Of a stretch of DNA of 64,000 bases, positions 13,345 to 60,378 are shown in pieces. The notes below the pieces were generated by a model. That model searched no databases. It saw only the letters and a program-made list of their open reading frames with translations, and was not told the DNA's origin. Where the stretch lies: the NCBI GenBank assembly GCA_951406725.2, contig OX597815.1, positions 188,728,001 through 188,792,000 on the forward strand, given 5' to 3'. The translations under genes and the position numbers were made by a program. Every line of letters begins with the position of its first letter. The stretch's first letter is position 1. Source of the stretch: Octopus vulgaris (Eukaryota).

Positions 13345-13506
13345 TGATGTAAATATGCCATTTGAATATGGCTAACCCCTAAGGGTGGATGCTACTGTAG
13401 TTTTTAGCCCCAGGAAGACATCTCCTCCAGCTGGCTATAGACACACTTTCTGTGCCCTATCAGTATTTGCAAAGGAAGCCATCCTTCCCGTCTTCAACTT
13501 ATGATA

Positions 13507-13551
13507 CACACGGACCCGAGTTTCAAGGTATTGACCTATCATCAGCGTGTG
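13507..13551 (-). ncRNA. Type I hammerhead ribozyme motif
   Basis: Mirror copy of 13658-13702. Confidence 0.85.
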
Positions 13552-13657
13552 ACAATCACAGTTGTCGATAGGAAGGAGGTTCTCTTTACAAATACATACT
13601 GGAAAATGTATATGTATTTGTAAAGAGAACCTCCTTCCTATCGACAACTGTGATTGT

Positions 13658-13702
13658 CACACGCTGATGATAGGTCAATACCTTGAAACTCGGGTCCGTG
13701 TG
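13658..13702 (+). ncRNA. Type I hammerhead ribozyme motif
   Basis: cacacg CTGATGA t aggt caat acct t GAAA C tcgg GTC cgtgtg: 6-bp stem I, intact core, GUC cleavage triplet, minimal stem III. Confidence 0.85.
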
Positions 13703-13864
13703 TATCATAAGTTGAAGACGGGAAGGATGGCTTCCTTTGCAAATACTGATAGGGCACAGAAAGTGTGTCTATAGCCAGCTGGAGGAGATGTCTTCCTGGG
13801 GCTAAAAACTACAGTAGCATCCACCCTTAGGGGTTAGCCATATTCAAATGGCATATTTACATCA

Positions 13865-16494: not shown

Positions 16495-17085
16495 ATTACA
16501 AGTTACAAATGTTTCTGTACCATCTTCATTTGCAATGGCAGTAAATGCAAAAATTATAAAAGAAAAATTATGCAATGTTTGCGGTTTTAGGCATTGGGAA
16601 GGCTTTTCCTCAGACTTGCATCAAAGGTGTGCTATTACCTTGTGTGTCTATCAGACCTTGTTGGGAAAGTACCAGAAAGATATAAGAAATAAAGAATAAA
16701 AAATGTGTATGCAGGATGAGTCTGTGGGGTAGATATTATGTGGTGGGGTGGAGGAATCAAGAGGATAGGTGTGTATAATGATGAGAGTGATACGTATAAT
16801 GAAATGTATCCACCCTCTTGATTCCCACCCCCATATAATATCTTCCCCACAGTCTCATCCCGCATATGTACACTTTCATTTTTTTCTTTTTTCTTTCCTT
16901 CCGGTACTTTTCCTCACAACATGGTCCGAGATAGACACACAATGTAATAGCATGCCTTTGATGTAAGTCTGAGGAAGTGCCCCACCGATGCCTAAAACCG
17001 CAAGTATTACGTAATTTTTCTTTTAGAATTTTTGCGTACGCTGATGTTGCAGAAGGAGATGGTATGGAGACTTTGGTAACTCATA
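16495..17085. repeat. Diverged inverted pair of Penelope-like ends (spacer ~16772-16805)
   Basis: For example gcggttttaggcat..cctcagacttgcatcaaagg versus cctttgatgtaagtctgagg..atgcctaaaaccgc. Confidence 0.85.
16497..16620 (-). ncRNA. Type I hammerhead motif with ~91-nt stem II domain
   Basis: Minus strand tgcaagt CTGAGGA [91 nt] GAAAC attt GTA acttgta. Confidence 0.65.
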
Positions 17086-17089
17086 ATTA

Positions 17090-17624
17090 GGTGCAGGAGT
17101 GGCTGTGTGGTAAGTAGCTTGCTTACCGACCACATGGTTCCGGGTTCAGTCCCACTGCGTGGCATCTTGGGCAAGTGTCTTCTGCTATAGCCTCGGGCCG
17201 ACCAATGCCTTGTGGGTAGATTTGGTAGACGGAAACTGAAAGAAGCCTGTAATATATATATATATATATATATTAAGGTATGTAGAAAAATACAACATGG
17301 ACAAGAACGTATAACTCTTAGAAGACGATACAATAAACACGGACAGGACATTCGAAACCCTCAGTCTTCAGTCAAGAACCGGATCATCGTAGTAATTTCG
17401 GTGTGTGTGTATGTTTGTGTGTCTGTGTTTGTCCCCCTAGCATTGCTTGACAACTGATGCTGGTGTGTTTATGTCCCCGTCACTTAGCGGTTCGGCAAAA
17501 GAGACCGATAGAATAAGTAGTAGGCTTACAAAGAATAAGTCTTGGGGTCGATTTGCTTGACTAAAGGCGGTGCTCCAGCATGGCTGCAGTCAAATGACTG
17601 AAACAAGTAAAAGAGTAAAAGAGT
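17090..17624 (+). mobile_element. SINE family A with an insert (~17276-17400) in its central microsatellite
   Basis: Family match; insert homologous to 34427-34545. Confidence 0.88.
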
Positions 17625-18320: not shown

Positions 18321-18495
18321 TTTGCTCTATACCAAATAGCGCTCACCACTTCACCTCGTTATGGCTTAACAGCCAACACCATTTGTTTTTAGTGTTTTGT
18401 TCTTACTGTCCTGTTTTTGTTACTACTTTAACCCTCTGCAAAAAATCCCAAATTATATTTAATTTGCTTTGCAGGAAAGATTGTTTTGATCAGCT

Positions 18496-18556
18496 CGTGT
18501 CTTGTCCCTACCTTTGAAACATGGAGTAGATAAAATAGGGGACAACTGATGAAGGG
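18496..18556 (+). ncRNA. Candidate non-circularly permuted hammerhead (family P1)
   Basis: cgtg TC ttgtccc ta ccttt GAAA catg [15 nt] gggacaa CTGATGA aggg. Confidence 0.7.
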
Positions 18557-34430: not shown

Positions 34431-34949
34431 CAAAATGGGACAAAAATGCAAAACATCCAAAGAAACGATACAAAAAATACAGACGGGTCATTCAAAGCTT
34501 CTAATCTTCAGTCAAGAACAGAATCATCCTTGCAATTTCGGCTGATTAATCTTGAGATTGCTCCGATCTGGCCAGCGTCAACGGAAAACTAAGCATTAGA
34601 TTTCTTGGAAAAAGGATCAAATGTATACGAAACAAGGACAGAAAAACGGATGATGTTACACAAATATAAATACAAAAGACAAAAAATAATACGAATATAA
34701 ATACAAAAAACAATAATATGTGTGTATGTATTTGTGTCTGTGTTTGTCCCCCCCCAACATCGCTTGACAACTGATGTTGGTGTGTTTACGTCCCCGTAAC
34801 TTAGCGGTTCGGCATAAGTGACCGATAAAATAAGTACTAGGCTTACAAAGAAAAAGTCCTGGGGTCGATTTGCTCGACTAAAGGCAGTGCTCCAGCATGG
34901 CCACAGTCAAATGACTGGAACAAGTAAAAGTGTAAAAGTGTAAAAGTGT
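34234..34949 (+). mobile_element. SINE family A with an insert (~34427-34716) in its central microsatellite
   Basis: Head and tail flank a segment homologous to 45813-46060. Confidence 0.88.
34496..34561 (-). ncRNA. Candidate non-circularly permuted hammerhead (family P2)
   Basis: Minus strand gcaa TC tcaaga ttaatc agcc GAAA ttgc [14 nt] tcttga CTGAAGA ttaga agct. Confidence 0.7.
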
Positions 34950-45810: not shown

Positions 45811-45885
45811 CATTAGATTTGATGCTTTTTTCCAAGGAATCTAATGCTCTTAGCTTAGTTTTTCCTTGAGGCTGGCCAGATTGGA

Positions 45886-45950
45886 GCAATGTCAAGATTA
45901 ATCAGCTGAAATGCAAGGATGATCTGGTTCTTGACTGAAGATAAAAGGCT
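45886..45950 (+). ncRNA. Permuted hammerhead family P2, mutated copy
   Basis: gcaa TG tcaaga ttaatc agct GAAA tgc [14 nt] tcttga CTGAAGA taaaa ggct; position 17 is G, predicted inactive. Confidence 0.6.
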
Positions 45951-58953: not shown

Positions 58954-60019
58954 ATGTACATGTAGGACTTCTGCATTGTTTCTGTCTACCAATTTACTGA
59001 CAAAGCCGGATATTGAAATTTTTCATTTATTTCCATCTGTAGATGTTGATTGTTCTTTCATGTTATTATTAAACTTGAATGCTAATACTTCCAAACCTAA
59101 TTTCAAAGTGATAGTTCATTAAGTAACTAATTATCGTTATAGTGATTCAAAGTGGACAAAGACAGTTCCGTACTTAAATGCTTAACAATGATGAAATATC
59201 GGATAAATTAGCTTTGAAATTGTGAAAAACAATCTAAAGCACTCACACACACACACACACACACACGTAAAGACACACTCACACACACATAAAGACAAAC
59301 ACACACACACATAAAGACAAACACACACACACGTAAAGACAAACACACACACATAAAGACAAACATACACATACATCAAAACACATATATACATAATATA
59401 TATATAATTTAATATGAATTGTTAGGATTTAAAATATGAGGAAATTTTTGATTAATTTGATTAATTGAATAATTTGGCATTTTGCATATGTTATTAAATT
59501 GATTGCTTCTAGATGATAAATTTAATACAGTAACATCTGTCAAACCGATTCCTTTAGGAAAAGAAAATGTATTGTTGAGTTCTGAAGTTATAGTTTAGCA
59601 ACAGAAAGGAAATAAAAGTGATTTATTAAAACAAAAACTACTTTGATAGTTTTTCTTGAAGATGGAACAAAGAAGAAAAGACAATTCCAAGGGAAAAATT
59701 GAACCAAATATTAACAACAAAGATATAGTAAAACTTAAACTTGGTATAAGATGCAACATTCAAATGTGTAATTAATGGCATTTGAAATTTCTTAATTAGT
59801 TTCATATAGTTGATCAAAATAATTTTTTGAGTGAAAGACTCGTTAAGAAGCCTGTTTGTGACTACATGGTTTCAGATTTTGTACTATTGTGTAATGCACT
59901 AGACAAAGAAACTCTACAGGAGTATTCTGCATACTGAATCCACATATTACAGGGTCTCACATATGGAAGGTATTTCAACCATGTTTTGAGGTCTGCTACC
60001 ACAACAGCTCCTTTATAGG

Positions 60020-60378
60020 ATCCAGTTAACTCAAGACATCATCAGGAAGAACCACGTTCGGTTTCGGCCCTTAATCCTCTACCGTTTTGACGTGGTGCTC
60101 CCCCCACTTTTGGAGGTGTCTTCAGCTCTGGTGTTGGGTGCGTGTCTTCTTTCTTCTTCTTTCTTCTGTTCCCTGGCCTCTTCGATGTAGCGCCAATGAG
60201 TGTCAGCAGGCGACTGACTGCCTTGTCAAATTTTTTCCCTTTAAATACCTGCTGCTAGGCTCCCGCAGGCAGCCCCAGCAAGTTGTCACGTGACACTGTC
60301 TCAACTTTAATGGTGGTAATACTGGACATTCCATCCCTGTTCTCTGCACTCTTCGATTAGTTTTTCGTACCTCAGTGG
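60020..60378 (-). mobile_element. 3' remnant of an RLE-type non-LTR retrotransposon (HERO/NeSL-like)
   Basis: Minus strand 60375-60300 reads LRYEKLIEECREQGWNVQYYH then, after a frameshift, IKVE; resembles the Y..L...C...GW.....EVG end of RLE domains. Confidence 0.6.
60033..60084 (-). ncRNA. Candidate non-circularly permuted hammerhead (family P3)
   Basis: Minus strand cgg TA gagga tta agggc c GAAA ccg aacgtggt tcttc CTGATGA t gtctt. Confidence 0.75.

Follow-up and report, generated by a model that had tools for sequence, protein, structure and literature searches.

Near its 3' end, the window (the whole 64,000-nt stretch of Octopus vulgaris DNA analysed here) contains the remnant of a LINE with a restriction-like endonuclease (RLE), and within it the building blocks of a permuted hammerhead ribozyme (Table 1). 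The peptide that the original prediction had placed upstream of these blocks is real: positions 60372-60313 encode a piece of the RLE region of the protein of what we refer to as family A, with 95% identity over 20 amino acids by tblastn. The distance of ~220 nt between peptide and motif is an artefact of decay, produced by an internal deletion of ~299 nt at 60311 that took the end of the open reading frame (ORF); in three relatives (L026, L016, and L009), about 300 nt extra lie between the two blocks matching the window copy. At 60084-60033 on the minus strand, the three hammerhead blocks were found with the letters and in the order predicted, S-G-C, and the predicted cut between 60080 and 60079 was upheld on re-reading of the letters. 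The window copy has the core letters C3 U4 G5 A6 N7 G8 A9 and G12 A13 A14, the pair A15.1-U16.1, and an H17 that is not G. The motif is located 112 nt upstream of the 3' end of the element, whose terminal segment (59968-60032) is presumably the region of protein binding and of the start of reverse transcription. A descriptor set to the stringency of the window motif gave four matches in the window (two SGC and two type I) compared to none in 100 local dinucleotide shuffles. An Rfam search of the window gave no match at gathering thresholds.

Table 1. Parts of the LINE copy and of its predicted ribozyme in the window, in 5' to 3' order of the minus strand except for the first row, which gives the whole copy.
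Feature	Position	Strand	Basis or state
5'-truncated, internally deleted copy of the high-copy HERO-like RLE LINE family A	59968..60373	-	genome relatives
Restriction-like endonuclease coding remnant, 20 aa, 95% identity to family A protein	60312..60373	-	tblastn, translation
Breakpoint of ~299-nt internal deletion; ORF end and start of 3' UTR gone	60310..60312	-	relatives
Stem II 5' strand (10.x), decayed	60097..60102	-	2 bp here vs 5-6 bp in intact copies
P0 (fourth helix) 5' strand	60089..60095	-	motif comparison, helix count
4-nt bulge separating P0 and stem III	60085..60088	-	motif comparison
Stem III 3' strand including U16.1	60081..60084	-	letters, covariation
Predicted cleavage site after A17	60079..60080	-	hammerhead geometry; family B 5' truncations at equivalent site
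Stem I strand 3' of the cut	60075..60079	-	covariation
Stem II 3' strand (11.x) with short linker to stem I	60066..60071	-	covariation
G12-A13-A14-A15.1 and stem III 5' strand	60059..60065	-	letters, helices-only search
P0 3' strand, one mismatch in window copy	60052..60058	-	motif comparison
Stem I partner strand, then C3-U4-G5-A6-N7-G8-A9 (3' end of the predicted ribozyme)	60039..60050	-	letters
Stem II partner of the original prediction, without cross-family covariation	60033..60038	-	motif comparison
Terminal segment with hairpins, up to the common 3' end of insertions	59968..60032	-	relatives

A first look at the 2.8-Gb genome yielded 2255 candidates for the family A stretch, 40 of which were scored. 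The full unit has a size of ~3.7-3.9 kb, and 30 loci share one common 3' end 112 nt past the cut, with variable 5' ends. Long copies encode a C2H2 finger, a reverse transcriptase (RT), a CCHC knuckle, and a PD..E nuclease, the knuckle and the PD..E being identified by eye and the RT by a match to RVT_1 with an E value of 1.7e-23. Pfam analysis of two family A pieces returned RVT_1 only, without GIY-YIG or telomerase-like RT, and the C-terminus is of the RLE type, unlike in Penelope-like elements. Family B, a young sister in the same genome, has a unit of 3738 nt with an open frame of 1175 amino acids and is about 65% identical to family A at the DNA level in the RT region. The single ORF with RT, CCHC knuckle, and PD..E endonuclease corresponds to the structure of HERO elements, and dispersed insertions are a further feature in common with the HERO clade. 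By eye, the RT of family A contains the HERO-specific stretches of the HERO-2_DR, HERO-1_BF, and HERO-1_SP rows printed in that supplement, and these stretches are absent by eye from the Dong, CRE, R2, NeSL, and Utopia rows on the same page (PMC5678591). The original prediction of a permuted hammerhead core near the 3' end of an RLE-type LINE other than Penelope is supported, the LINE being HERO-like. A PDB sequence search with the C-terminal half of the protein produced no matches, and viral contigs contained no relatives of the protein. Family A is present in contigs of four organisms (4 of 24 sequencing runs), with loose ends piling up at the common 3' end. Target-site duplications at short copies are mostly absent or within microsatellites; two longer copies (L246 and L263) have duplications of ~25 bp by eye.

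Relatives of the element were collected with a profile from 30 of 81 proteins (the query and 80 matches), and the best 79 of 345 metagenome loci, with protein identities of 31-62%, were compared. Using a first descriptor that did not include stem II, an S-G-C core was found within 600 nt after the ORF in 45 of the 79 loci and in 35 of the 53 loci with at least 350 nt downstream, with no SGC match in 286 kb of minus strand. A revised descriptor identified the motif in 47/79 loci, and the union of both descriptors amounts to 51/79. Among the 28 loci missed by both, 16 have less than 350 nt downstream; the 12 loci with at least 350 nt gave no descriptor match and several near-matches by eye. To avoid circularity, we also performed a search for helices only, in which no letters were required. 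The complete core, with H17 never G and N7 free, occurred in 36 of 43 solutions compared to 0 of 16 antisense and 0 of 8 ORF solutions. All 13 core letters are kept, with exactly the freedoms of a hammerhead, across proteins that are 31-62% identical. In two loci (L120 and L132), U replaces C3 while all helices are intact. Six motif-bearing loci gave no Rfam match at E values up to 1. Another GAAA close to the 3' end was considered as the G block (type SCG) and rejected, as it needs a core mismatch and occurs in 1 of the 79 relatives. In a quick, midpoint-drawn protein tree (79/81 rows, without named HERO proteins), which was not used for the order of events, the motif is spread across the tree. 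Full-length relatives, checked for the motif, have kept it, and as judged from these comparisons the predicted ribozyme is a clade-wide feature.

Covariation was analysed in 45 distinct motifs: 42 from metagenomes (3 duplicates were dropped), the window copy, and one copy each of families A and B. For stems I and III, positions not required by the descriptor were paired in 76-91% of cognate compared to 38-68% of non-cognate combinations. The original prediction that all three stems pair thus stands for stems I and III and fails for stem II, which lacks covariation over the 45 motifs. When the tail following CUGANGA was placed opposite the segment before GAAA, 10.1-11.1 was mismatched in 40/45 motifs; the duplex energy was -3.2 kcal/mol for cognate and -3.4 for foreign tails (43 rows with a long enough tail), and the numbers of pairs were 2.38 vs 2.37. 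A stem II after CUGANGA was tried in four registers and rejected, as no covariation was obtained beyond isolated columns. The stem II that is supported is formed by the 5-6 letters before GAAA and a segment ~19-25 nt upstream of U16.1, with at least four Watson-Crick pairs in 40/45 cognate compared to 30% of non-cognate combinations (0/20000 permutations). Within it, 10.1-11.1 is G-C in 40, G-U in 3, and A-U in 2 of the 45 motifs. At the family level, this stem II is closed by R10.1-Y11.1 adjoining G12, and only 2 bp are left in the window copy. In the window, the partner is located at 60102-60097, 5' of the 52 nt of the original prediction, which had assigned an a-c-b (type SGC) fold with stem II after CUGAUGA. 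As the true partner of stem II lies upstream of the cut, the backbone is open between A9 and 10.1: 10.1 is situated ~20 nt 5' of the cut, A9 forms the 3' end of the motif, and the covalent A9-10.1 link is absent. A constant helix closing the gap between A9 and 10.1 was considered and is unsupported (3.4 vs 2.7 pairs).

A fourth helix, P0, is formed by the leader and the linker between blocks G and C; what had been taken for an 8-nt linker in the window is actually one strand of this helix, paired with 60095-60089. Kink-turns have a consensus of a 3-nt bulge followed by tandem GA/AG, placed between a canonical and a second helix. This signature occurs in the standard register between P0 and stem III in 26/45 motifs. 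Families A and B, which belong to a bulge-type subgroup of the protein tree, have a bulge of 4-6 nt instead. Counted over 21 rows taken from the 42 for equal spacing, 93.8% of the cells in the four helices were paired, with two-sided changes at 20 of 23 pairs; shuffled controls gave 0/500, and in slid controls 33-48% of the cells were paired. For the two helices that had not been part of the first descriptor, counted alone, the value was 90.1%. From 5' to 3', the motif consists of the stem II 5' strand, P0, the kink-turn or bulge, the stem III strand with the cut site, stem I, a short linker, the stem II 3' strand, GAAA, stem III, P0, stem I, and CUGANGA. By its pairing pattern, the motif is a double pseudoknot with a fourth helix, often a kink-turn, and not a plain type-SGC hammerhead.

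The stem II 5' strand has at least five pairs in 11/38 family A and 31/39 family B copies and is broken in the others. Instability of a G run may account for the frequent breakage in family A. In this family, the G/C run that holds the stem II strand (equivalent to 60097-60112) varies far more than the rest, also in contigs of other organisms, and slippage of the run is the likely cause. Having lost the upstream strand of stem II, the window copy is probably inactive. A second copy of the stem II 5' strand occurs ~16-20 nt further upstream, within a hairpin, in nine relatives (L148, L150, L169, L173, L117, L127, L163, L130, and L151) and in family B; it could represent a folding switch that delays or blocks cleavage.

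Further hammerhead-like motifs are found elsewhere in the window. A different high-copy repeat (4762 first-look candidates) at 18475-18556 (+) has the same open-core layout with sequences of its own, including an upstream stem II, P0, and stems I and III; its tail could also pair as stem II. None of 20 loci of this repeat gave a HERO protein match. A third repeat family with S-G-C blocks is located at 34500-34580 (-), 45865-45945 (+), and 17365-17400 (-); by eye, it combines an upstream stem II with the signature of a kink-turn. The 5' side of the copy at 17371 is shortened. Positions 13350-13860 form a fold-back inverted repeat with type I hammerheads at 13658-13702 (+) and 13551-13507 (-), both with a U-U mismatch after the core. 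The layout of this region resembles the inverted structure at the 5' end of Penelope-like elements. Two related segments lie in inverted orientation between 20860 and 21130; in both, half-motifs with GAAA and CUGAUGA are separated by ~45 nt. Related copies in opposite orientation at 16560-16620 (-) and 16910-17010 (+), with CUGAGGA and a nearby hairpin, are possibly decayed hammerheads.

In the sections covered of the study by Eckert et al. (2023), permuted hammerheads are sorted into six block orders in which the blocks are assumed to be uninterruptible, with A9 and 10.1 joined (at most 1-2 inserted letters) in all types (PMC10085705). The HERO motif shares with their type-SGC/CSG hammerheads the core letters, the cyclic block order, the short linker between stems I and II, and an extra helix that joins the outer sides of stems I and II, P0 being equivalent to their helix 'I' (PMC10085705). 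In contrast to these types, block C of the HERO motif is split at A9|10.1, with one stem II strand 5' of the cut, and both strands of stem III connect to the extra helix, in many cases by way of a kink-turn signature (PMC10085705). In the same sections, SGC RNAs are said not to be found in genomes of known organisms, whereas the HERO motifs are present in the genome of an animal and belong to a clade of autonomous LINEs (PMC10085705). How the distal ends of the extra helix and stem III are joined was found hard to explain by Eckert et al., and the term 'kink' has no match in their supplement (PMC10085705); a kink-turn or bulge may offer a route joining the distal ends of P0 and stem III. On the grounds of its predicted pairing, the HERO motif is a further opening of the SGC/CSG scaffold. 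The term 'type-SGC' appeared in one paper only in the open literature searched, and published tests of hammerheads that lack the A9-10.1 link were not encountered there. In the same literature, seen mainly as titles and starts of abstracts, no HERO ribozyme or partial-tandem structure was encountered. Nor was a report of a HERO hammerhead or of the A9|10.1 wiring found in these open papers, which does not prove its absence from the literature.

Evidence on cleavage comes from copies whose upstream sequence leaves the family within a fixed interval around the site (38 of family B and 54 of family A). Family B has 19 true 5' truncations in the interval from -15 to +10. Eight of these are located exactly at +1 (p 3e-7, uniform over 25 positions), and two further ones are at -1 or mis-scored through a nearby change. 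The +1 truncations examined (7 of 30 shown) are solo inserts of ~116-120 nt, reaching from the cut to the common 3' end. Family A displayed no significant peak (2/20 at +1, 4/20 at -1/+1, p 0.08), a few of its 20 truncations resembling mis-called indels. A T before the junction occurs in nearly all truncations and is not peculiar to +1. Since the partner strands would already have been copied, a structural stall is not expected at +1. The family B peak points indirectly to an RNA end or nick at the predicted bond, and we consider it very probable that the motif self-cleaves. Three family A loci (L075, L336, and L371) have internal deletions that end at or adjoin the predicted cut, possibly as a result of template jumps to the cut end.

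In the original prediction, cleavage could define the 3' end of the element. Inserted copies, however, run past the cut with the site intact, by 112 nt in family A and by 116-119 nt, up to the common 3' end of the insertions, in family B, and the 3' end of the insertion is therefore not set by the ribozyme. At the other end, 30 family A loci were selected through the start of the ORF. The match begins at the first base in 23 of them, and in 22 of these the upstream sequence is that of the element's own 3' end over about 100-950 nt; in the remaining one, ~20 nt of the 3' end are recognisable by eye. Of these 22 partial tandems, 21 cross the cut and none begins at it; seven on one contig share the same start and probably go back to a single event. 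Unit position 1 is reached by 7 of 20 long family B loci; each of the 7 extends a further 238-1971 nt upstream, and none begins at the cut. Two full units were not seen at any of the 20. Full-length copies accordingly have no fixed 5' end and are headed by a partial copy of their own 3' end that is variable in length and spans the site. As no tandem starts at the cut, the motif does not act solely as an R2-like 5' trimmer. Five metagenome contigs contain a second motif copy 3.5-4.6 kb upstream, and several have terminal repeats at unit distance. An inverted, 5'-truncated copy abuts the 5' end of the family B locus L256 (G000:C11:84626500-84635500); an inverted 5' copy is among the arrangements described for Penelope-like elements in the part of PMC8557442 covered.

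Partial copies resemble the unit that they precede. In the three informative loci among the seven family B partial tandems, the partial copy and its own 3' end have 11/11, 1/1, and 4/6 private variants in common, and no other locus shares more than 6, 0, and 1 of them, respectively; the remaining four are uninformative. The partial copy of L248 differs from its own unit at 2 positions and from all 17 others at 10 or more. One master locus or local gene conversion would also fit the shared private variants. At the 3' junctions, the sequence tapers off into the beginning of the following unit, and 37 of 94 family B junctions extend past the modal end, which suggests internal priming, with microsatellite tails as a confounding factor. 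Junctions across the cut are nearly always seamless. The letter before the cut is changed in 18 of 541 family A copies, 16 of which keep upstream element sequence; in family B, this letter differs in 36 copies, mainly through C-to-T at CpG, compared to 404 exact matches (to an overlapping longer pattern).

In the reading that we favour, with a probability of roughly two in three, a unit-length RNA would be cut at both ends, circularised, primed ~116 nt past the junction, and copied for more than one round. Transcription of a partial-tandem locus and cleavage by both ribozyme copies would yield a unit-length RNA (3738 nt in family B) that is closed into a circle. Three helices would hold the two ends of this RNA in one active site, so that closure could occur by self-ligation or by an RtcB-type ligase. 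The element protein would prime target-primed reverse transcription internally and circle more than once, by which the partial tandem would be regenerated, while stops at +1 would reflect nicked or unligated templates. Translation from a unit-length or circular RNA would have to be cap-independent. Weighing against this reading are the non-significant 5'-end peak of family A, its stem II strand being broken in 27/38 copies, and the 12 loci that gave no descriptor match despite sufficient downstream sequence. Release of units from tandem transcripts had been suggested in the original prediction, and the sequence data support the idea. That HERO LINEs use rolling-circle target-primed reverse transcription on a ribozyme-made RNA circle and, in addition, have a seventh hammerhead wiring missed by standard descriptors is, as a combined statement, somewhat better than an even bet.

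The same ribozyme could also produce a unit-length RNA that stays linear. The RT would then begin 116 nt from the 5' end of this RNA, proceed to the cut end, and switch precisely onto the 3' end of that RNA or of a sister molecule. End-to-end template jumping is a known activity of the R2 protein. The fixed 3' end, the partial tandems, the private variants in common, and the +1 stops would be expected from this route as well; the seamless junctions, however, would demand high efficiency without added letters, and we regard it as possible but unlikely. More doubtful still is a fold that serves as a docking or priming structure for the element protein and cuts rarely or never, with tandems derived from read-through transcripts of tandem loci. 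The intact site in more than 95% of site-spanning copies and the lack of a significant 5'-end peak in family A would suit such a role. It is difficult to reconcile with all 13 core letters being kept with hammerhead freedoms despite the divergence of the proteins (31-62% identity), with the helix in conflict with plain SGC being the canonical stem II, with the sharp 5'-end peak of family B at the predicted bond, and with the lack of any two-full-unit locus among the 20 long loci of that family.

A plain type-SGC hammerhead with stem II after CUGAUGA, whose cut defines the 3' end or acts in an R2-like manner at the upstream copy only, would agree with the block order S-G-C, and the tail of family A can form five pairs (three of them G-U) behind a U-C mismatch. 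We consider this very improbable: the tail shows no covariation in four registers and its duplex energies equal those of foreign controls, copies end 112-119 nt past the cut, and partial tandems do not begin at the cut in family B (0/7) or in family A (0/22). Partial tandems might finally arise independently of any ribozyme, by new copies inserting at the 5' ends of older ones. The head-to-tail junctions are precise, and 3' junctions frequently agree with the opening letters of the following unit. This explanation is nevertheless hardly credible, given that partial copies have private variants in common with their own downstream unit (L248) and that nearly every copy reaching the start is a tandem.

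Circle-templated copying, as favoured here, has precedents among proposals for other elements, each compared as far as the sources were covered. For Penelope-like elements, a circular template and more-than-unit reverse transcription have been proposed (PMC4209133). HERO-like elements share with them the 5' truncation, the partial tandems, and a 3'-proximal hammerhead duplicated upstream (PMC4209133, PMC8557442). Penelope-like elements have type I hammerheads in pseudo-LTRs, a GIY-YIG endonuclease, and a telomerase-like RT, whereas HERO-like elements have a C2H2-RT-CCHC-RLE protein and a permuted ribozyme (PMC4209133, PMC8557442). Naiad elements are reported to be without canonical hammerheads, and eight of them have half-cores 35-50 nt apart (PMC8557442); for these and other partial-tandem elements, the 'missing' ribozyme may be one with the A9|10.1-open wiring. 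In animal non-LTR retrozymes, for which RNA circles have been shown, a hammerhead similarly cuts monomers from tandems, and circles are proposed as templates for more-than-unit cDNA; in contrast to these non-coding, non-autonomous elements of 170-400 nt, the HERO-like element is 3.7 kb in size, protein-coding, and autonomous (PMC7229834). With R2, it would have in common that the RNA of an RLE LINE is freed from a longer transcript by a ribozyme, which in R2 is of the HDV-like class and at a fixed 5' end (PMC3774820, PMC13580325, PMC7650587). The HERO-like ribozyme, unlike that of R2, is located near the 3' end of the insertion, and full-length copies lack a fixed 5' end. The contrast with R2 drawn in the original prediction thus persists in a subtler form, as both ends of a unit-length RNA most likely arise from the cut.

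If this reading is correct, hammerhead topology would extend beyond the six-permutation scheme, and the permuted hammerhead family would gain its first genomic home and a job. A LINE clade would then be copied beyond unit length from circular RNA, a route hypothesised until now for Penelope-like elements and not expected for elements of the RLE LINE type. The young family B, with its intact frames of 1175 amino acids and a precisely predicted cut, would permit a direct test of this long-standing circle hypothesis. For the production of circular RNA and for retrotransposon-based gene insertion, a compact ribozyme keeping its two ends together and a LINE protein that primes internally on a circle would likewise be of relevance.
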